DNA of 64,000 bases, from positions 27,301-91,300 of the forward strand of contig JABDAM010000003.1 of assembly GCA_013289145.1 (NCBI GenBank), read 5' to 3'. Below the pieces are notes generated by a model. It was not told where the DNA came from, searched no databases, and was given only the letters and a program-made list of their open reading frames with translations. Below, piece by piece: positions 8,433-51,318 of the stretch. A program made the translations under genes and the position numbers. Each line of letters begins with the position of its first letter. The stretch's first letter is position 1. The DNA comes from Alphaproteobacteria bacterium. Its GTDB lineage: Bacteria; Pseudomonadota; Alphaproteobacteria; UBA11073.

Positions 8433-8789
8433 TTATCGCGGCAAGGGAACGCGTTCCACAGGCAGATAGCGGTGGCGGTGGCGGTGCAGCGCTTCAGCCA
8501 GAAATTCTTTGATCAGGGCGGTATAAGGTATATCCTCCACCATACCGATGGCGCGGATTTCATTCAGTAAAGGCCGCGGCAGACGCAGGGATACAACCTC
8601 CGTCGGCTGTGCGGTGCGGGGTGTAATGTGGATGCCGATGTCGGCGAGGGTAAGAGGTTTTGATAGGTCGGCAAAATCTGTCAGGTCAGTGTAATCGTAA
8701 TCTGTGATTTCCCGCAAAACTTCCTTCTTGGGTGCGCGCGACTTTTTGTGGGTGGGTTTAATGCCAGATTTTTTGCGACTTTTTTTCAT
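8433..8789 (-). CDS. brnA: BrnA-type antitoxin (RHH/CopG-like C-terminus)
   Basis: 118 aa lying immediately downstream of, and overlapping, a DUF497/BrnT gene. The C-terminal VSLRLPRPLLNEIRAIGMVEDIPYTALIKEFLAEAL matches the BrnA pattern. Confidence 0.7.
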   Translation of the reverse strand: MKKSRKKSGIKPTHKKSRAPKKEVLREITDYDYTDLTDFADLSKPLTLADIGIHITPRTAQPTEVVSLRLPRPLLNEIRAIGMVEDIPYTALIKEFLAEALHRHRHRYLPVERVPLPR

Positions 8790-9054
8790 CGTATAACTTC
8801 CTTTCTTTGCGCGATGCCGGACGAGCGGTTATCACGCGTATCTTGCCATTGCGCCGGGTGAAGCCGACCATCAGTAATCTGTTGTCGTTTGAGAAGCCCA
8901 GCATTCCAAACCGCTTTTCATGTGCGGAGTGAAGCATATCGGGATAGACGAGAAGATGGGGATCCGCAAAGGCGCTTTCGGCTTCGGCAGCGTTGACACC
9001 GTGCTTTTCCTCATTCTTCTGCCGGTTCCATTGGTCCCAGTCAAAGACAATCAT
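8758..9054 (-). CDS. brnT: BrnT (DUF497) ribonuclease toxin
   Basis: 98 aa reading FDWDQWNRQKNEEKHGVNAAEAESAF...IRVITARPASRKERKLY, which is the DUF497 signature. The toxin-first gene order is typical of BrnTA. Confidence 0.8.
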   Translation of the reverse strand: MIVFDWDQWNRQKNEEKHGVNAAEAESAFADPHLLVYPDMLHSAHEKRFGMLGFSNDNRLLMVGFTRRNGKIRVITARPASRKERKLYDEKKSQKIWH

Positions 9055-16975: not shown

Positions 16976-17344
16976 TTATAGCTTGCTCGGCGGGTAGTCC
17001 TGCATCAGCTCCCGGATTCTGCCGCGCAAAGGCAAAAGAACGTCAATAGCGAAATTCCACGCCATCTGCACATTGATATGAAAATATTCATGAATAAATT
17101 CATTGCGCGTATCCACCAAATCAAGCCATGGAATATCAGAAGCAATTTGATCGATTTGATGGTTGCGGAGCAAATGCCGGCTAGCTTCGCCGATGACTTC
17201 GATGGTTTTAATAAAGGCCAGCCGACGTTCGATGCTATTTTCAATTTCTTGCCGTCCGTCGCGGGTCAGCATTTCCAGCCAGCTTAATGCTGCGTCGACG
17301 TCAAACAACCAGTTGAATATTTGCCGCTGCGATGATTTTTTCAT
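16976..17344 (-). CDS. hepT: HepT-type HEPN toxin (DUF86)
   Basis: 122 aa with the Rx4HxY motif (RNEFIHEY) and IEVIGEA. It overlaps the upstream MNT gene by 4 nt. Confidence 0.8.
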   Translation of the reverse strand: MKKSSQRQIFNWLFDVDAALSWLEMLTRDGRQEIENSIERRLAFIKTIEVIGEASRHLLRNHQIDQIASDIPWLDLVDTRNEFIHEYFHINVQMAWNFAIDVLLPLRGRIRELMQDYPPSKL

Positions 17345-17661
17345 ATGGCGGTGATGTCGTCCGCGATTTCATCCTGAATGCGGATCAGGCTGGGCGGGCT
17401 GGCCAGATCGACTTGGCGGCCGAGAAAAGTTTGTAATGCGCGTTTAAGGCGCACCAAATCCAGATAGGAACGGTCGGGGGCAAAGTCGGCAATCATATCG
17501 ATATCGCTGTCTGGGGTTTCTTCGCCACGCGCGACAGAGCCGAAGACGCGCAGATTGCTGGCGCCATATTGTGCCGCAAGTTCCGTAATTTCATCTCGGC
17601 GGGTTTTGATTTGCTCAAGCAGCATGAGCTTAATTATATCAAAGCTTGCCGCAAAAGCCAA
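17341..17661 (-). CDS. mntA: MNT-type nucleotidyltransferase antitoxin
   Basis: GS-x10-DxD motif FGSVARGEETPDSDIDM. The start is ambiguous: a TTG at 17661 lies 10 nt after the nrdB stop, and an ATG lies at 17625. Confidence 0.8.
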   Translation of the reverse strand: MAFAASFDIIKLMLLEQIKTRRDEITELAAQYGASNLRVFGSVARGEETPDSDIDMIADFAPDRSYLDLVRLKRALQTFLGRQVDLASPPSLIRIQDEIADDITAI

Positions 17662-18682: not shown

Positions 18683-19105
18683 TTAATTCCGTTTGTTGAG
18701 TTGTTGAACTTTTTGTTTGAGAAGCTGATAGCCTGCATTTAGCAGGGTTGAATAGTCTTTCTCAATATGTTGGCTAATTTTTTCTAAATCAGGCGGGGAG
18801 TATTCATGTGCTAGCGTATTTCGGTCACTGTGCATTTCAAACCAGCCTTCGCTTTTAGGAAGAAGGCCATTTGTCATGCCAATTTCCAAAGTCTCTTTGG
18901 GGAAATTGCTTTTAGGTTCGTCCAGGTAAGCAATAATAAGCCTAGTCAACTGCCGTGTCATTTCATAGGCAAGACGAAAGCGGCTGGCTAATGCTTCGCG
19001 GTATAATTTGTTTTCGCGTTCTGCTTCAATCGCATTCAAATCCTGAATGGCGGCTGTCAGGTCTGTGAAAACTTCATTAATCAGTTCAAGGCGTTCAGCG
19101 GACAT
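18683..19105 (-). CDS. HEPN nucleotidyltransferase-substrate-binding protein (HI0074-like), putative toxin
   Basis: Rx4HxY motif RNTLAHEY. The ATG at 19105 is preceded by GGGAGAG; the ORF track's TTG start is at 19129. It overlaps the MNT gene upstream. Confidence 0.75.
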   Translation of the reverse strand: MSAERLELINEVFTDLTAAIQDLNAIEAERENKLYREALASRFRLAYEMTRQLTRLIIAYLDEPKSNFPKETLEIGMTNGLLPKSEGWFEMHSDRNTLAHEYSPPDLEKISQHIEKDYSTLLNAGYQLLKQKVQQLNKRN

Positions 19106-19427
19106 AAAGCGCTCTCCCTTCTTTTTCAATTATTTTTCTTAAAGCTGGGCGCGCGTGCGCCAGATTAACGCAGTCGATTTTCGCCAGCTTATCTGACGCA
19201 TTCACAATATCCGTCAGTTTCCGCCATATGACGTGATCTGCGGTTGAATCCATTTCAAAGGCCAAATCCACATCCGAAAATTTATGAATTTTTCCAGTTG
19301 CATAGGAGCCAAATAAAACAATTTTCATAATTTGCGGAAAAACCAGTGCTAGATTACGCACAATCTCCCGCAGCCAGGGCTCAAGCCCTTCGTCGTTAAT
19401 CGTAATGGTGCGGGTTTCGGTGAGCAT
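19095..19427 (-). CDS. Nucleotidyltransferase (HI0073/MNT-like), putative antitoxin
   Basis: 110 aa with the motif LFGSYATGKIHKFSDVDLAFE. Confidence 0.75.
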   Translation of the reverse strand: MLTETRTITINDEGLEPWLREIVRNLALVFPQIMKIVLFGSYATGKIHKFSDVDLAFEMDSTADHVIWRKLTDIVNASDKLAKIDCVNLAHARPALRKIIEKEGRALYVR

Positions 19428-19467: not shown

Positions 19468-19568
19468 TGTCACCCCGGCCTTGTGCCGGGGTCTGTCTCG
19501 ACGTTAGGGCGATGCTTCAGAATGTGTGATTGCGGCGCCGCAGACCCCGGCACAAGGCCGGGGTGACA
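19468..19568. repeat. Nested palindromic element of the GTCAYCCCGG family (copy 2)
   Basis: tgtcaccccggccttgtgccggggtctg (19468..19495) is a perfect inverted repeat of cagaccccggcacaaggccggggtgaca (19541..19568). Each arm is itself a hairpin (ccccggc...gccgggg). Confidence 0.85.
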
Positions 19569-25196: not shown

Positions 25197-25538
25197 CTAA
25201 TCACCCAAATGATCCGGCCAATGCATCGCCGTGTGCAAAATACGGATGATGCGGATGCCGCCGTCGATTTGCCGGTATAAAATGCGGTGGCCGTGCGCGT
25301 TGCGGCGCTTGCGGAATTTGGCGATATAGATGCGGATGCCGGGATGGCCGGTGGCGGGTTTGCCAAGGTGCGGGTCGTTGGCCAATTCCGCAAAGATATT
25401 ATCCAGGAACGCCATATAGCGTTCGGCCTGAATTTTACCCCACATGCGGGCGGTGGTTTTATCAATGGCCGTGAATTCTGCTGCCGCGGCGGGCGAAAAA
25501 TCGATTAATGCGCCGTTTCGGCAATCATGCTCCGCCAT
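25197..25538 (-). CDS. parE: RelE/ParE-family toxin
   Basis: 113 aa with a ParE-like pattern (IDFSPAAAAEF..I......GKIQAERYMAFLDNIF..LANDPHLGKP....PGIRIY......HRILYRQIDGGIRIIRILH). It overlaps the upstream antitoxin gene. Confidence 0.7.
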   Translation of the reverse strand: MAEHDCRNGALIDFSPAAAAEFTAIDKTTARMWGKIQAERYMAFLDNIFAELANDPHLGKPATGHPGIRIYIAKFRKRRNAHGHRILYRQIDGGIRIIRILHTAMHWPDHLGD

Positions 25539-28605: not shown

Positions 28606-29124
28606 ATGGCAAAAGCCGCTAAAAAGGATTTGAAAACAGCTAAAACTTCGGCTGATGCGCGCTCCGCGCGCCGGGCCAATACCCGCGAACGGGCGGAGCG
28701 GGCAACGCGCAAGATGGCGGCGCGGGAGCCGGTGGTTGAAACGCAGTCGCTGCGGCCGACGCGGGATATAGAGGGTTTGCAGAAAATCGCGCGTTTGATG
28801 AGCGGGCTGTCGCTGCGCGCGGCCAATGCTTATGCGGATGCGCGGATGGGCGAAGGCGACAAATATGTCCGCATCGCCGCCGCCGGATATCGTGAAGCCA
28901 TGGGAATTTTCGATGAAATTATTAAGGCCAATCGCGTCTTGAAGGAAGCCGAGCGCGAGCATTTAATAACAGTCATGAATGGCATCAAATTACTGCACGT
29001 GCGCATCCAGGATTATAACGTCGCCTGCAAGGATGAAGCATGGCGCCGCGAACACCAGGAAGAATGGAACCCGCACCCGCTGGGCGAGGATAAGCAGGGG
29101 TTTTTTGCGAAGGAACGGTTTTAG
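28606..29124 (+). CDS. Hypothetical protein (basic N-terminus)
   Basis: 172 aa with AGAGGA upstream of the ATG. The stop codon abuts the octamer-array repeat. Confidence 0.55.
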   Translation: MAKAAKKDLKTAKTSADARSARRANTRERAERATRKMAAREPVVETQSLRPTRDIEGLQKIARLMSGLSLRAANAYADARMGEGDKYVRIAAAGYREAMGIFDEIIKANRVLKEAEREHLITVMNGIKLLHVRIQDYNVACKDEAWRREHQEEWNPHPLGEDKQGFFAKERF

Positions 29125-29240
29125 TAGACGAGCGGACGAGCAGACGAGCGGACGAGAATAAAAAATTTCGTATGAGAGATTCATTTCATACATAAACCGC
29201 CAGAAAATCTCGTCTACGCGTCCGCTCGTCCGCTCGTCTG
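29125..29240. repeat. Inverted octamer-array element (copy A, intergenic/3'-terminal)
   Basis: The left arm is tagacgag-cggacgag-cagacgag-cggacgag (29125..29156). The right arm is ctcgtcta-cgcgtccg-ctcgtccg-ctcgtctg (29209..29240). The spacer is 52 bp. Confidence 0.85.
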
Positions 29241-30146
29241 CTGGATCGCCTCATCCAGTTTGTGATCCTCAATCCCCGCCGGTTCCTGGTGCAAAATGAT
29301 TTGCGCGGTGGGGTAGCGGCGGCGCAGGGCGTCTTCGAGCATTTCGGTGATGTGGTGGGCGTCGTGCAATGTCAGGTCGCCGGGCATTTCGACGTGGGCG
29401 TCGATGAAAACGTCGGGGCCAGACTGGCGCGTGCGGAGGTCGTGCATGCCGGAGACGCCGTGGTGCGCCAGGATGATTTCGGAAATGATGTGGCGGTCTT
29501 CGTCTTTCATTTCCTTGTCCATCAATTGCTCTGCCGCGCCGCGCGCGAGCTTCCAGGCGGAGAATAAAATATAAAATGAAATCAGCATCGACGCCGCGCC
29601 GTCGAACCGGTCAAAGCCCATGCCGGATATCAGTAGGGAAATAATCACGACGATGTTGACCAGCATATCGTTCATGTAATGCAGAAAATCCGCCTTGATC
29701 GACATGCTGTGCGTGCGGTCGACGACGCGGTGCTGGTAGATCAGCAATGCTAAAATCAGCACACTGGAAATAACCATGATGGTGATGCCGATAGGGGTCG
29801 ATTCCACCGGCTCGGGGGAGAGCAGGCGGGAAAAGGATTGAATTAGAAAATAAATTCCAGATCCCGCGACGAATGCCGCCTGCCCCAGGGTGACGAGCGG
29901 TTCAGCCTTGCCATGGCCCCAGCGGTGGTTTTTATCCGGCGCGCGGTGCGCGACGCGCAGGGCGTAAAAAGCCGTCGCGGCGGCGATGGCATCGCCGACG
30001 GATTCCAGCATGGATGCCAGCATCACGAGCGCATTGGTCTGAAAATAGGCGTACAATTGCAGTGCAATAATCGTCAGGCCCACGGCCAGGCTGACCAGGG
30101 CGGCTTTTTGGGTTTGGTGTCCGCGTTCGCGGTGGGAGAGGGACAT
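29214..30146 (-). CDS. Cation diffusion facilitator (CDF) family metal efflux transporter
   Basis: 310 aa with six TM helices and a C-terminal cytoplasmic domain (CzcD/FieF-like). The last residues QQTSGRADA and the stop codon are encoded by the repeat arm. Confidence 0.85.
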   Translation of the reverse strand: MSLSHRERGHQTQKAALVSLAVGLTIIALQLYAYFQTNALVMLASMLESVGDAIAAATAFYALRVAHRAPDKNHRWGHGKAEPLVTLGQAAFVAGSGIYFLIQSFSRLLSPEPVESTPIGITIMVISSVLILALLIYQHRVVDRTHSMSIKADFLHYMNDMLVNIVVIISLLISGMGFDRFDGAASMLISFYILFSAWKLARGAAEQLMDKEMKDEDRHIISEIILAHHGVSGMHDLRTRQSGPDVFIDAHVEMPGDLTLHDAHHITEMLEDALRRRYPTAQIILHQEPAGIEDHKLDEAIQQTSGRADA

Positions 30147-38113: not shown

Positions 38114-38557
38114 TCAGATCAAGCGCACAAAGTAGTTTTGAACAGACGCAAAATCGTAATAGTAACCCTGCCATCCGGCGCGTTTTGCCGTTGCGCTCAA
38201 TGCTTTTCTTGCTTTGAATATTTCAGGTTTCTGAAGGTCTGAGGGCAGATAGTAAACGGCAATTTCCTTTCCGTTTATCAAAACCAAAAATAACGGAAAA
38301 TATATTCCTGCCGCCATCCTTTCGGATTGCGGCTTCCAGGCCGCGGATAAAACCCGTTTGGGCGGTTTTTGAATGTCTTTGACGTTTTGTGTTTTGACTT
38401 GCGCCAAATAGCCGCAGAAATCACATATAATATCAGCGCATTTGAAATTGGGCGGCAGCAATTTTAATGTTTGCGAACGTTTGCACCTGGGACAGGCGCA
38501 TTTTTTTGCAATGAGCTGTTCCCCTCGTTTCCCCAGTTCTTGTTTGGCTGTTGCCAT
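38114..38557 (-). CDS. Hypothetical Cys4 zinc-ribbon protein, possibly a PD-(D/E)xK-like nuclease
   Basis: 147 aa with GKRGEQLIA, then CxxC-x19-CxxC (CPRCKRS...CDFCGY), then ADIICD...AQVK, which resembles a D...(E/Q)xK motif. Confidence 0.45.
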   Translation of the reverse strand: MATAKQELGKRGEQLIAKKCACPRCKRSQTLKLLPPNFKCADIICDFCGYLAQVKTQNVKDIQKPPKRVLSAAWKPQSERMAAGIYFPLFLVLINGKEIAVYYLPSDLQKPEIFKARKALSATAKRAGWQGYYYDFASVQNYFVRLI

Positions 38558-41430: not shown

Positions 41431-41505
41431 GCCGGCTTAGCACAGTGGTAGTGCAGCGGTTTTGTAAACCGAAGGTCGCGGGTTCAAATCCTGCAGCCGG
41501 CACCA
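41431..41505 (+). tRNA. tRNA-Thr (anticodon TGT)
   Basis: I folded the cloverleaf by hand. The acceptor gccggct pairs with agccggc, the D-arm is gcac/gtgc, the anticodon stem is gcggt/accga with loop ttTGTaa, the T-arm is gcggg-ttcaaat-cctgc, and CCA is encoded. Confidence 0.9.
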
Positions 41506-43018: not shown

Positions 43019-44434
43019 ATGGCGATTGATATTCTAATGCCCGCTTTATCGCCTACGATGACCGAGGGCAAAATCGCCCGTTGGTTGGTGAAGGAGGGCG
43101 ACGCGATTAAATCCGGCAAAGTCCTATGCGAAATCGAAACCGATAAAGCCACGATGGAAGTTGAGGCGGTGGATGAGGGTACGCTGTTAAAAATCGTCGT
43201 GCCGGAAGGCGCGGAAGGTGTTGCGGTGAATAGTGTGATCGCGGCGCTGGGCGCGAAGGGCGAAGTATACGAGCAGACGAGCAGACGAGCAGACGAGCAG
43301 ACGAGAAAAAGTACTGATGCCGTCGCGAATGCCCCTGTTATTGATCCGGGGTGTATTCCTGGAATGTCGCCCGCCAACCAAACGCAACAAATCTCGTCTG
43401 CTCGTCTGCTCGTCTGCTCGTCTGCTGATGAGGAAAAATTCTATTCTGGCGGCACGAAAACCATGACCGTGCGCGAAGCGCTCCGCGAAGCCATGTCCGA
43501 AGAAATGCGCCGCGACCCGACCGTGTTTTTAATGGGTGAAGAAGTCGCGGAATATAACGGCGCGTACAAAGTGTCGCAGGGCATGCTGGATGAATTCGGC
43601 CCAGAGCGCGTGATTGATACGCCGATTACCGAAATGGGTTTCGCGGGTCTGGGCGTTGGTGCGGCGTTTGGCGGCCTGAAACCCATTGTTGAATTTATGA
43701 CAATGAACTTTTCGATGCAGGCGATTGACCACATCGTGAATTCCGCCGCCAAGACATTATATATGTCCGGCGGCCAGATGGGTTGCCCGATTGTTTTTCG
43801 TGGTCCCAACGGCGCGGCGGCGCGCGTGGGTGCGCAGCACAGCCAATGTTTCGCGTCCTGGTACGCGCATATTCCAGGCCTGTATGTGCTGGCGCCGTGG
43901 AACGCGGCGGACGCGAAAGGCCTGATGAAGGCCGCGATCCGCAATCCAAACCCCGTCGTGTTTTTGGAAAACGAAATCATGTATGGCCAGTCGTTCGAAG
44001 TGCCGGTGCATGATGATTTCGTCCTGCCCATCGGCCGCGCGAAAATTGAACGCGCGGGCAAGGATGTCACCATCGTCGCTTACGCCATCATGGTGGGCAA
44101 GGCGTTGCAGGCGGCGGAAGAATTATGGAAACTCGGCATCGATGCGGAGGTGATTAACCTGCGCTCCATACGTCCGCTCGACGTTGAAACCATCGCCGCG
44201 AGTGTGCGCAAAACCAACCGCCTGGTGAGCGTTGAAGAAAGCTGGCCGTTTGCCGGCATCGGCTCCGAAATGGCGGCCTTGATGATGGAGCATTGTTTTG
44301 ATGATCTCGACGCGCCGATTGCGCGCGTATGTCATAAGGATGTGCCGTTGCCCTATGCCGCGAACCTGGAAAAACTCGCCTTGCCGCAGATTGAAGATAT
44401 CGTCGCGGCCGCGCGGGGAGTTTGCAACCGATGA
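43019..44434 (+). CDS. pdhB: Pyruvate dehydrogenase E1 beta subunit with an N-terminal lipoyl domain
   Basis: A lipoyl domain ([14 protein letters not shown]) is followed by a linker and then the E1-beta core ([15 protein letters not shown]...). The linker is encoded by the octamer-array repeat. Confidence 0.95.
43267..43427. repeat. Inverted octamer-array element (copy B, in frame inside pdhB)
   Basis: Four perfect cagacgag units (43274..43305) face four perfect ctcgtctg units (43393..43424) across an 87-bp spacer. This is a 32-bp perfect inverted repeat. Confidence 0.9.
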
Positions 44435-45756
44435 GCATCGAAATTTTAATGCCCGCCCTGTCGCCGACGATGACGGAGGGGAAACTCGCGCGCTGGCTGG
44501 TAAAGGAAGGCGACGAAATTAAATCCGGAAAAGTTTTGTGCGAAATTGAAACCGACAAAGCGACCATGGAAGTTGAGGCGGTGGATGAGGGGACATTATT
44601 AAAAATCGTCGTGCCGGAAGGCAGTGAAGGCGTTGCGGTGAATTCAGTGATTGCGGCATTGGGCAAGGCTGGAGAAAAGTACGAAGCTAAGCAGACGAGC
44701 GGACGAGCAGACGAGCAGACGAGCAAGCCTGCAGCTGCATTAACACCACTTTCAAATATTTCCGCCCAATCATCGCAAGCACTATCACAAGATTTCGTCT
44801 ACTCGTCTGCTCGTCTGCTCGTCACTAACCAAGGCCGCATCGCTGCGTCACCCGTCGCAAAACGCATCGCGCAGGAACGCGGCGTGAATTTATACGCCGT
44901 CATCGGTACGGGCCCGAACGGGCGGATTGTGAAGGAAGACGTGTTGAACGCGGTTCAGCAGACGAGCAGACGAGCAGACGAGCAGACCAGTGCAACAAAA
45001 TTGCCTACGCCAGCGCAAGCGATTCCTGCCGCTGCCGCAGGGCCGAACGCGAAACAACTCGCAGATTTGCTTGGCCAGAAATATACCGAAGTTAAAAATT
45101 CGCCCGTCCGCAAAATCATCGCCAAACGCCTGACGGAATCCAAACAAACAGTGCCGCATTTTTATCTGACGGTGGATTGTGAACTCGATGCGCTCCTGGC
45201 CGCGCGCAAAGCGTTGAATGAAAAAGAAAACGCCAAGATTTCCGTCAACGACGCGATCATCAAGGCGGTCGCCCTGGCACTGCGCGAAGTGCCCGCCGCC
45301 AACGCCGCCTGGACGGAAGAGGCGATTTTGAAATATACCGATGTGGATATTTCTGTGGCGGTCGCCACGGCGGACGGTTTGGTCACGCCGATTATAAAAG
45401 GCGCGGACGGCAAAAGCCTGGTGCAAATCTCAACCGAAATGCGCGACTTGGCCGCCCGCGCGCGCGACAATAAATTAAAACCCACCGAATTCCAGGGCGG
45501 CGGATTTACGATTTCCAACCTCGGCATGTTCGGCATCAAAAATTTCGCGGCCATCATCAACCCGCCGCAGGGTTGCATCCTGGCCGTCGGTGCTGGCGTG
45601 AAAAGCGCGGTGGTAAAGGATGATAAACTTGCGATTGCAACGGTGATGAACGTGACGCTATCAGTCGATCACCGCGTGGTGGACGGCGCCGTGGGCGCGG
45701 AATTTTTGGCGGCGTTTAAGAAATTGATTGAAGCACCGTCAGTGTGGGTTAAATAA
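44431..45756 (+). CDS. pdhC: Pyruvate dehydrogenase E2 (dihydrolipoamide acetyltransferase)
   Basis: The ATG overlaps the pdhB TGA (ATGA). It has a lipoyl domain, a PSBD ([16 protein letters not shown]) and a catalytic domain ([10 protein letters not shown]). Confidence 0.95.
44692..44823. repeat. Inverted octamer-array element (copy C, in frame inside pdhC linker 1)
   Basis: The left arm is cagacgag-cggacgag-cagacgag-cagacgag (44692..44723). The right arm is ttcgtcta-ctcgtctg-ctcgtctg-ctcgtc (44794..44823). Confidence 0.9.
44959..44990 (+). repeat. Solo octamer array (copy D, in frame inside pdhC linker 2)
   Basis: Three perfect cagacgag units plus cagaccag. No inverted partner lies nearby. 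Confidence 0.8.
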
Positions 45757-50091: not shown

Positions 50092-50595
50092 CTACGATTG
50101 CGCCGGGCTGAATTTTAATAAGCAATTCAGAGCCGTTTCAACAACCTGTTGACGGACATCGTTGCGCTCGCCTGGGAAGTGTTTTTCTATGATTTTAATG
50201 TTGGGGCTGCTTCCCGCTTTGCGACGCGCCACGGAAATATAAACCAGTCCATCTTTATCCGGTGATACGCCGGACGGGCCGGCGTAGCCTGTGACTGCGA
50301 CGCCAACGGCAATATCGGGCATGGATTTTAACAGTCCCAAAACCATAGCTTCCGCGCATTGGCTGCTTACGGCTGTATATTGTTCCAAAATATCCGACGG
50401 TACGCCTAGGAATTGTTTTTTCGCTTCATCACAATAAACCACATGCCCGCCATGCAATACGTTCGAAGCGCCCGGAATATCCGCAATTGTCGCGCTGATT
50501 AATCCTGCCGTCAGGGATTCTGCCGTGCCGATTTTTTCTCCGGCGGAAGTGTAACGCTTTACAATTTCGGCTGCTTTTTCGTTCGTTGATGTCAT
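50092..50595 (-). CDS. CinA C-terminal-domain protein (PncC-like nicotinamide-nucleotide amidohydrolase), copy 1
   Basis: TAESLTAGLISATIADIPGAS...TGYAGP. The start is set at MTSTNEKAAEIV; the ORF track extends to 50658. Confidence 0.8.
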   Translation of the reverse strand: MTSTNEKAAEIVKRYTSAGEKIGTAESLTAGLISATIADIPGASNVLHGGHVVYCDEAKKQFLGVPSDILEQYTAVSSQCAEAMVLGLLKSMPDIAVGVAVTGYAGPSGVSPDKDGLVYISVARRKAGSSPNIKIIEKHFPGERNDVRQQVVETALNCLLKFSPAQS

Positions 50596-50676
50596 TATAA
50601 ATAATGCCTGAGCTCGATAATTAACCGGACTATATCCAATTTGGACGACCGAATGCAAGAATTTTAACAGAACAGC

Positions 50677-51165
50677 CTATAAAAAACTTAATAGCTTATT
50701 CATTGCGGCATCGGCGGCGAGGTGCTGCACCGCTTCGCGGTCGCCGCCAAAGAAATGTTGGGTGACTGCGGGTTCGCCATCGCGTCGTGCGGCGGCAATA
50801 TAAAGCAGCCCGACAGGTTTGGCGGGCGTTCCGCCCGACGGGCCCGCAATGCCGGTGATTGCAACCGCGGTTTGTACGGTGGGCGGGCAGGCGGCGAGGA
50901 GGCCGCGTACCATCGCCTCGGCACATTCAGCGCTGACGGCGCCATGGGTTTCAAGGACCGTGGCGGGCACGGCCAGCAAATCCATTTTTGATTGATTGGA
51001 ATAGGTGATTAGGCCGCGCTCCAAAACCGCTGAAGCGCCGGGTATGGCGGTGACCAGGGAACACACCAGCCCGCCCGTGCAGGATTCCGCGACAGCAATC
51101 ATCTCCCCGCGTGAGGTGAATTGATCGACGATGGCTTGCGCTTTGGCTTTCAGGTTGGGGAGCAT
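50677..51165 (-). CDS. CinA C-terminal-domain protein (PncC-like), copy 2
   Basis: VAESCTGGLVCSLVTAIPGAS...TGIAGP, 162 aa. Confidence 0.8.
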   Translation of the reverse strand: MLPNLKAKAQAIVDQFTSRGEMIAVAESCTGGLVCSLVTAIPGASAVLERGLITYSNQSKMDLLAVPATVLETHGAVSAECAEAMVRGLLAACPPTVQTAVAITGIAGPSGGTPAKPVGLLYIAAARRDGEPAVTQHFFGGDREAVQHLAADAAMNKLLSFL

Positions 51166-51170
51166 TGTAA

Positions 51171-51318
51171 CGTCACCCCGGCGAAGGCCGGGGCCCAGAC
51201 TTTAATCTTTAATGCCCATCTTTTTTAAAAGCAACTTAAAGAAGGGTAATAAAAAACAGGGCCAAACTTTGGCCCTGTTTAATTTTACTCTGGGCCCCGG
51301 CCTTCGCCGGGGGTGACG
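51171..51318. repeat. Nested palindromic element of the GTCAYCCCGG family (copy 3), with an internal terminator
   Basis: cgtcaccccggcgaaggccggggcccaga (51171..51199) is inverted with respect to tctgggccccggccttcgccgggggtgacg (51289..51318). The centre carries aaaaaacagggccaaactttggccctgttt. Confidence 0.85.

Follow-up and report, generated by a model that had tools for sequence, protein, structure and literature searches.

Inverted arrays of a tandem octamer in a pdhB linker, probably two copies of a dispersed REP-like module of Alphaproteobacteria

Short palindromic repeats, namely REP (repetitive extragenic palindromic) sequences, BIMEs (bacterial interspersed mosaic elements), REPINs (REP doublet-forming hairpins) and RPEs (Rickettsia palindromic elements), are common in bacteria, albeit their origin and spread are poorly understood, particularly for the alphaproteobacterial families of the CGTC type, for which no transposase is known. 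We analyzed a stretch of 64,000 nucleotides from an Alphaproteobacteria bacterium (contig JABDAM010000003.1; the whole stretch is termed the window below), in which the pdhB gene carries two facing arrays of a tandem octamer. The gene (43019..44434, plus strand) is an open reading frame (ORF) of 471 aa for the E1-beta subunit with an N-terminal lipoyl domain, and a protein identical to the window PdhB (P0001) was matched by PF00364 (Biotin_lipoyl), PF02779 (Transket_pyr) and PF02780 (Transketolase_C). A re-reading of the letters between 43264 and 43429 agreed with the sequence as originally given. The forward arm (43272..43306, plus strand) is 35 nt long and reads AG(CAGACGAG)4A, namely AGCAGACGAGCAGACGAGCAGACGAGCAGACGAGA, with a degenerate fifth unit TATACGAG at 43266-43273, and the reverse arm (43392..43426, plus strand) is its exact reverse complement. 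The repeat search found the 35-nt arms to be 100% complementary and 85 nt apart, and exact periodicity extends over 43269-43305 (forward) and 43393-43426 (reverse). The inverted repeat claimed in the original prediction is thus real, albeit with arms of 35 nt instead of 32 bp and a spacer of 85 nt instead of 87 bp. A two-unit probe, CAGACGAGCAGACGAG, with up to two mismatches allowed, matched the window 20 times, where dinucleotide-preserving shuffles predict 0.02 matches.

Both arms are translated, and the element is read through in frame in the linker between the domains. The sequence together with the ORF and Pfam data therefore confirmed that perfect inverted octamer arrays are translated within an interdomain linker of PdhB. 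All six frames of the tandem octamer are free of stop codons, and the arithmetic that had been presented for this property was correct. On the other hand, the property is not special, as it is shared by 45.8% of all octamers, or by 50.8% with weighting for base composition; stop-free arrays are a precondition for survival in ORFs and no evidence of design. As had been anticipated, translated arms occur in more than one reading phase: the reverse arm of pdhB begins on the third position of a codon and the others on the first, and other phases are used by the arms in a Sua5/YrdC domain (L028) and in TolB (see below for both). When the window forward arms are translated (at 43274, 44692 and 44959, and at 29.2 kb on the minus strand), the first CAG is a codon in four out of four and the peptide is QTS(R/G)RADEQT each time, which may be chance or shared history.

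The spacer of the pdhB pair (43307..43391, plus strand) turned out to be the native PdhB linker, as found by protein comparison, DNA alignment and a codon view, and not the unrelated sequence that had been assumed. PdhB orthologues are all 455-472 aa long, and the closest of them lack the arm peptides QTSRRADE and SSARLLV yet share the middle of the spacer (ANAPVTDPGCTPGM in P0002, NAPVLDPGCTPGM in P0006 and NKPVIDPGCVPG in P0007). The core of the spacer, ...NAPV.DPGC.PGM, was found in the array-free proteins P0002/3/5/6/7/8, and the DNA alignment placed the arms on either side of this conserved core. Thus, instead of one palindromic element inserted whole, there are two 35-nt modules flanking host sequence, with a net gain of about 11 aa. 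Neither PdhB of P0002-P0009 nor the DNA of L069, L070, L125 and L127 has the arms, and no arrays were found in the 15-21 kb loci of relatives. In the tree of the E1-beta core, the window protein was nested among array-free lineages and the outgroups were array-free as well, implying that the pdhB arms were gained on the branch leading to the window. The alignment of orthologues, which had been suggested as a check, accordingly found the pdhB arms to be lineage-specific.

The native spacer bears directly on whether a conventional MITE (a miniature transposable element with inverted repeats) or an RPE-type palindrome with a core of its own was inserted as a whole into pdhB. The arms do look like terminal inverted repeats, in-frame insertion of palindromes is known from Rickettsia, and a true long-armed palindrome occurs in the same linker of a relative (L124; see below). 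Nevertheless, the pdhB spacer is orthologous to host sequence, the spacers of other pairs are unrelated to one another and vary between 3 and 85 nt (one of them, in L080/L090, holding the start codon of tolB), and lone arms exist. At seven pairs, the search for target-site duplications gave inconsistent 3-4 nt chance matches or none. Insertion as a whole unit is contradicted by the native spacer, and we regard this explanation as very unlikely.

The adjacent gene, pdhC (44422..45756, plus strand; Pfam Biotin_lipoyl, E3_binding and 2-oxoacid_dh), encodes the E2 dihydrolipoamide acetyltransferase and hosts three further arms. A pair occupies the first linker of E2. Its forward arm F1 (44690..44725, plus strand) reads AGCAGACGAG CGGACGAG CAGACGAG CAGACGAG CA and is translated, with orthologues in two soil contigs (L128 and L129), and its partly diverged reverse arm R (44794..44825, plus strand) reads TTCGTCTA CTCGTCTG CTCGTCTG CTCGTC, is translated as VYSSARLLV and pairs with F1 over 29 nt at 93%. 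The third arm, F2 (44957..44990, plus strand), is a translated forward arm at the start of the second E2 linker, of which the last unit is the variant CAGACCAG; no partner for F2 was detectable, even with relaxed matching. The first-linker pair is present in L128 and L129 with identical junctions, TACG|AGCAGACGAG and CTCGTS|ACTAACCAAGGC, although the spacer has diverged, while still being alignable, and decay is seen in the reverse arm. The second-linker array is common to the window, L128 and L124. In L124 it consists of (CAGACCAG)4, compared with (CAGACGAG)3+CAGACCAG in the window, implying homogenisation within the array.

In the catalytic domain of E2, the window grouped with array-free lineages (91% identity) and L128/L129 were more distant (83-84%), whereas in the flank downstream of the linker the array-bearing lineages share one allele with the window and other lineages have MREGRIAASP (window versus P0122-P0133). 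The E2 element is thus either old with several losses, or part of a linker segment exchanged between lineages by homologous recombination. The pdhC pair is older than the pdhB pair and has diverged. We also considered a recent conversion from pdhC to pdhB that carried the forward arm together with the lipoyl domain. This was rejected, as the DNA identity of the lipoyl domains of pdhB and pdhC within one genome (0.81-0.84) was no higher than that between genomes. Moreover, the pdhB arms are perfect canonical modules, unlike the diverged arms of E2. The pdhB pair is therefore recent and was not simply copied from pdhC.

A different palindrome was found in the pdh operon of L124, of which the PdhB core is 97% identical to that of the window. 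It is long-armed, about 130 nt in length (CTCCCCCTTGAGGGGGGAG..., -102 kcal/mol), and lies both in the PdhB linker and in the first E2 linker (357-1775 and 2131-2937), in frame as LPLEGGGG...SSPLKGE; in PdhB it replaces the native NAPVIDPGC core. The presence of a different palindrome in the same linkers implies that they are recurrent safe harbours for palindromic repeats in this clade. Furthermore, an extra ORF stands between pdhB and pdhC in L124 (1772-2134, 120 aa) and in L127 (11380-12222, 280 aa), hydrophobic and possibly a membrane protein, with no Pfam match in either case; in the window, pdhB and pdhC overlap directly.

The remaining pair of the window, at 29.1 kb, lies between convergent genes and overlaps both of their stops. 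The AG prefix of its forward arm (29123..29157, plus strand) completes the TAG stop (29122-29124) of the ORF at 28606..29124. Its reverse arm (29208..29242, plus strand) overlaps the last nine codons (QQTSGRADA) of a cation-efflux gene on the minus strand (29214..30146), of which the stop codon is supplied by the variant unit CTCGTCTA. Altogether, the octamer occurs at four sites of the window in seven arms: the pairs at 29.1 kb, in pdhB and in the first pdhC linker, and the lone arm in the second linker. A dispersed family had been predicted, and it was recovered, both as these three further copies in the window and as copies in other alphaproteobacterial genomes.

The same arrays are carried by OZ251979.1, the complete 1.93 Mb chromosome of an alphaproteobacterial MAG (metagenome-assembled genome) in which PdhB is 75% identical to that of the window. 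At least six elements were counted there with a 22-mer probe, including pairs between the HSP70 and DnaJ genes (L010) and between the RuvC and RuvA genes (L055), pairs that adjoin the stops of genes (L051a/b), and a lone arm that is read in frame within the Sua5/YrdC domain (L028). In the soil contigs L080 and L090, a four-unit arm lies in frame in the signal peptide of TolB, and its partner is vestigial and located upstream of the start codon, the spacer thereby containing the tolB start codon. Further carriers among the alphaproteobacterial soil contigs are L128, L129 and L124. The module is thus found at numerous unrelated loci across at least three related alphaproteobacterial lineages, in operon spacers (dnaK-dnaJ, ruvC-ruvA and tolA-tolB), at the 3' ends of genes, and in frame in interdomain linkers, a signal peptide, a C-terminal tail and a domain loop. 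These copies also bear on the question of whether the arrays are an artefact of assembly or sequencing. The window contig is seemingly derived from a metagenome and palindromes can be mis-assembled, but the module occurs in independent assemblies (the complete MAG chromosome and several JGI/ENA contigs), and orthologous copies bear lineage-specific substitutions with their reading frames intact. An artefact is hardly credible.

We aligned 20 arms in register from all the alphaproteobacterial loci. Four units were present in 14 of them, three in five and two in one; the AG prefix precedes almost all of the arms, and an A tail, often AT(T), follows about half. The canonical module, AG(CAGACGAG)4A of about 35 nt, is exactly the pdhB arm. 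A CGG variant at unit 2 recurs in arms of different loci and two genomes. Four units are kept in orthologous arrays of different populations (F2 in the window, L124 and L128, and the arm shared by L080 and L090), and this steady length implies that the array is not a freely slipping microsatellite.

The constancy of the module matters for a local origin, in which replication slippage expanded an octamer that a low-complexity linker already contained and template switching within the fork (quasi-palindrome perfection) made the inverted partner, with the arrays elsewhere being of separate origin or the products of ectopic gene conversion for which microhomology was the seed. Several observations fit such an origin, namely the replacement of native sequence at near-equal length, the perfect complementarity of the pdhB arms, the homogenisation within the array in L124 ((CAGACCAG)4 versus the mixed array in the window) and the lack of a consistent target-site duplication. 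Moreover, array-free relatives encode ...A-I-S/A-Q-T-S-A... where the second-linker array begins with QQTS (GCA CAA ACT TCA in L125). However, the same octamer with the AG prefix, the A(T) tail and a modal number of four units stands at unrelated sites, both intergenic and genic, in lineages that are only 75-85% identical in PdhB. Free slippage predicts variable numbers of units, yet 14 of 20 arms have four. At the E2 site, the likeness of the native DNA to the unit is weak (about 7/12 bases), and template switching alone leaves the fixed polarity described below unexplained. We consider a purely local origin unlikely, albeit worth keeping in view.

The constant number of units also concerns an intragenic inverton or a phase-variable contingency repeat that switches between forms of PdhB and E2. 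Perfect inverted repeats do flank a segment inside a gene, and slippage of an 8-nt unit shifts the frame. Nevertheless, simulated inversion of each of the three segments brought in stop codons, at aa 114 in pdhB and at aa 99 and 136 in E2, and the inverton was rejected on this ground. The equal number of units in orthologous copies across populations speaks against phase variation, and the host genes are central metabolic genes. Switching of either kind is extremely improbable.

The pairs have a fixed order. The CAGACGAG array is 5' and the CTCGTCTG array is 3' on either strand, in 15 cases against one of the reverse order, and the sole exception is the junction between two neighbouring E2 elements. 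Random independent insertions would yield both orders, implying that a pair is produced or retained as a polar unit. The spacers, which are unrelated in sequence across pairs, are the host's own DNA in pdhB and at the tolB start. The arms of a pair also tend to match one another in their variants: complementarity in pdhB is 35/35, and a rare variant stands at matching units of the two arms both in the 29.1 kb pair (CGG) and in L051b (TAG). The complementarity in pdhB, together with these matched rare variants, speaks for inverted copying or for selection that acts on pairing.

Folded as RNA, the pdhB region gave a 35-bp stem at -91.1 kcal/mol (z = -9.9), and none of the 200 shuffled sequences was as stable. 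The pdhC pair folded at -59.2 kcal/mol and the 29.1 kb pair at -68.5 and -65.5 kcal/mol on the two strands (z = -9.9 for the former), the z values of the pair folds ranging from -7.9 to -9.9. Single arms do not fold (-2.2 and -5.2 kcal/mol with z of +0.63 and -0.63, and z of +0.4 for a third arm). Most spacers are unstructured as well (z of about 0 to +1), the sole structured one being that of L023, and we rejected the idea that the arrays are outgrowths of pre-existing hairpins. Likewise, no T-run of the terminator type follows any copy, and a role as intrinsic terminator was rejected.

The stems lead to the possibility that the pair is under selection as a regulatory structure of the pdh mRNA, serving for instance as a site for RNase III, a pause for ribosomes or a determinant of stability, and that the family is kept as useful. 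The great stability of the predicted stems, the compensation of some variants between arms and the copies in spacers with plausible differential expression (those of dnaK-dnaJ, ruvC-ruvA and tolA-tolB) are consistent with this, and the fixed polarity yields the same RNA from either transcribed strand. On the other hand, close relatives run the pdh operon without the arms, the older E2 pair is decaying in L128 and L129, lone arms persist, and terminator-like T-runs are absent. Selection for a function in the mRNA seems to us distinctly improbable.

Arrays resembling those of the window are not confined to Alphaproteobacteria. Inverted CAGACRAG arrays of the same polarity were found in a Gemmatimonadota MAG (L023), in Prevotella and other Bacteroidota (L056 and L075/L112), in a contig of a human-gut metagenome (L107) and in GC-rich contigs (L084, L086 and L110). 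There were only three matches in viral contigs. The arrays in other phyla were found with this octamer alone as the probe, and they may reflect either a shared mechanism or a generic tendency. No neighbouring gene common to the inverted arrays in other phyla was found.

Some of these arrays have features of their own. At 6984-7240 of L056 (the Prevotella MAG OZ006992.1), about 150 nt of alternating CAGACGAG and CAGACAAG units face CTTGTTTG units, and on one strand every difference between the arms is G-U-compatible, a hint of selection acting on the RNA. In another Prevotella MAG, CALUGU01, (CTYGTCTG)n arrays in one orientation were seen on five contigs. At 2413-2500 of L023, inverted CAGACGAG-type arrays surround a strong GC hairpin. 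They directly follow the stop of an E2-like gene with a lipoyl domain and lie upstream of an lpd-like gene, which places them once more in a 2-oxoacid dehydrogenase operon.

Taking the data together, we propose that the pdhB element represents two copies of a short dispersed REP-like module with tandem-octamer arms instead of a small stem-loop, and assign a probability of roughly 0.6 to this reading. The module would have been copied in trans from canonical copies elsewhere in the genome, and the second arm would be either a second insertion beside the first or an inverted copy made by template switching. Under purifying selection, copies would survive only where they are harmless; within ORFs, the array open in every frame and the retention of those events that keep the frame may account for survival. 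A transcribed pair would form an RNA stem of 29-35 bp, which may affect the stability or processing of the mRNA. As for the polarity, we speculate that placing the purine-rich arm first would leave the C/U-rich arm sequestered once transcribed, on either strand. The presence of the element in pdhB can be explained with no function needed.

Several observations weigh against this proposal. No Y1/RAYT (REP-associated tyrosine transposase) or other transposase was found among the 40 small ORFs of the window, although 64 kb is a small sample and the lack says little in either direction. Single arms are unstructured, so the hairpin recognised by RAYT-type enzymes is absent, and the copy number, at least six in OZ251979.1, looks low. 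In addition, the arrays replace the native linkers at near-equal length with no clean addition of 35 nt (the second E2 linker is 18 aa versus 17 aa, and PdhB gains 11 aa net). Transposition explains such length replacement no better than conversion or template switching does, and a bare gain of 35 nt would put the gene out of frame. The tree of the E2 catalytic domain does not match the distribution of the E2 pair, and some of the sharing may thus reflect homologous exchange between lineages rather than new insertion. Finally, the variants of the E2 pair are not complementary between its arms.

We also entertain, as a bolder and doubtful alternative, that the arrays represent a previously undescribed class of repeats, maybe in several phyla, in which a non-hairpin octamer half-site is installed pairwise, with the purine-rich arm first, by polar copying. 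Such copying would be carried out around pre-existing DNA by a novel enzyme or a directed template switch, and if this were true, genomes could make long hairpins de novo around any sequence, essential genes included. In the literature, the octamer-array 16-mer appeared in no paper, and we found no description of bacterial inverted elements with arms of tandem repeats.

Whichever process is at work, the repeated module and the hairpin, which are fused in ordinary REPs, come apart in the octamer family. An unstructured module is still found in inverted pairs of fixed polarity, implying that the pairing results from the copying process or from selection on the paired state, and not from transposition of a pre-formed hairpin. 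The pdhB locus, with its perfect and recent pair, its conserved native core and its array-free relatives, offers an unusually clean view of the states before and after, and it demonstrates that a perfect RNA/DNA stem of 35 bp is tolerated in a central metabolic gene.

Other features of the window are mentioned briefly. The Rfam scan detected only one tRNA gene (41431-41502; RF00005, 71 bits), which is flanked by the aconitase gene and pdhA. An ORF of 147 aa (38114-38557), lying just upstream of that aconitase gene, has a partial match to the DpnI restriction endonuclease family (PF06044, 'Dam-replacing family'). Toxin-antitoxin-like pairs occur at 8433-9054, 16976-17661, 18683-19427 and 25197-25538, the set comprising BrnT with a CopG-like antitoxin, two HepT/nucleotidyltransferase pairs and a ParE toxin. 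Two adjacent ORFs with CinA domains (50092-50658 and 50677-51165) represent a tandem duplication beside the REP dimer at 51.2 kb described below.

Among the repeat systems known, REPs are the closest to the octamer family. In the survey of Di Nocera et al. (2013; PMC3733652), REPs form inverted dimers with variable spacers of 20-100 bp, and DNA is inserted between the partners. They sit within 20 bp of convergent gene ends and can supply stop codons with their own ends, in-frame intragenic copies exist, the CGTC type has no dedicated transposase, and REP families show a comparable, unexplained preference for one dimer type (PMC3733652). Like CGTC-tagged alphaproteobacterial REPs, the octamer module is a dispersed unit within 20-40 nt of low to moderate copy number. 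It is likewise found mostly in inverted dimers of a preferred polarity (15 versus 1) with variable spacers (3-85 nt) of unrelated DNA. The copies are similarly placed in operon spacers and near 3' ends, sometimes giving the stop, as well as inside genes (PdhB, E2, TolB, Sua5 and the cation-efflux tail). In contrast, a REP unit is a stem-loop (a stem of 8-9 bp and a loop of 4-5 nt) plus one unpaired terminal tag, whereas the octamer arm is not self-complementary and the octamer family gains structure only once two units pair. When REP tags were sought, CGTC was found in every CTCGTCTG unit and GTAG in the variant TAGACGAG units, with no single unpaired terminal tag. The association with RAYT, an IS200/IS605-like Y1 transposase, is confined to REPs of the GTAG type.

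The window itself contains inverted dimers of CGTC-type REPs, at 19468-19568 (TGTC-ACCCCGGC-CTTGT-GCCGGGGT) and 51171-51318, with the unit pattern of (C/T)GTC, ACCCCGGC, a loop of 4-5 nt, GCCGGGG and a tail. The latter dimer encloses a separate hairpin with flanking A/T runs (51243-51291), which is probably the native terminator of the neighbouring gene. Paired modules that flank native DNA are thus an established habit of REPs in this genome. We examined CAGAC motifs beside these REPs as possible kin of the octamer and rejected them for their inconsistent orientation.

Other systems are more distant. RPEs are about 100-150 bp long, conserved over their full length, inserted as a unit and add a defined peptide. 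The octamer family resembles them in lying in frame in essential genes, in being translated, in occupying permissive protein regions and in being absent from orthologues, but in its case repetition is limited to the 35-nt arms around a middle of host sequence, and the host gene changes little in net length. The likeness to Rickettsia palindromic elements drawn in the original prediction therefore holds for the in-frame tolerance only, REP dimers being closer. In REPINs, the replicating unit is the doublet together with its spacer, in association with a RAYT gene. Bertels and Rainey reportedly described them in 2011 as REP doublets that form hairpins and are mobilised by RAYT. The usual unit of the octamer family is also an inverted doublet that can fold as a long hairpin, with singlets that look like remnants, while its spacers are unrelated or native and RAYT was not found among the 40 small ORFs of the window. 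As in the Correia/NEMIS MITEs, short non-autonomous inverted repeats that can be co-transcribed and fold as RNA lie in or next to genes; the conserved internal sequence and target-site duplications of MITEs are absent in the octamer family. Inverted arms of short tandem repeats around variable unrelated middles are also a trait of the eukaryotic Foldback/Galileo transposons, of which the arms are kilobase-scale and transposase-associated, and the analogy is one of form only. Thus, although the architecture had not been recognised, the pdhB element is better filed with REP dimers than as an RPE-like insert or a new architecture. New in it are a tandem-octamer module that lacks structure of its own and the polar way in which this module, within essential genes, is paired around host DNA.

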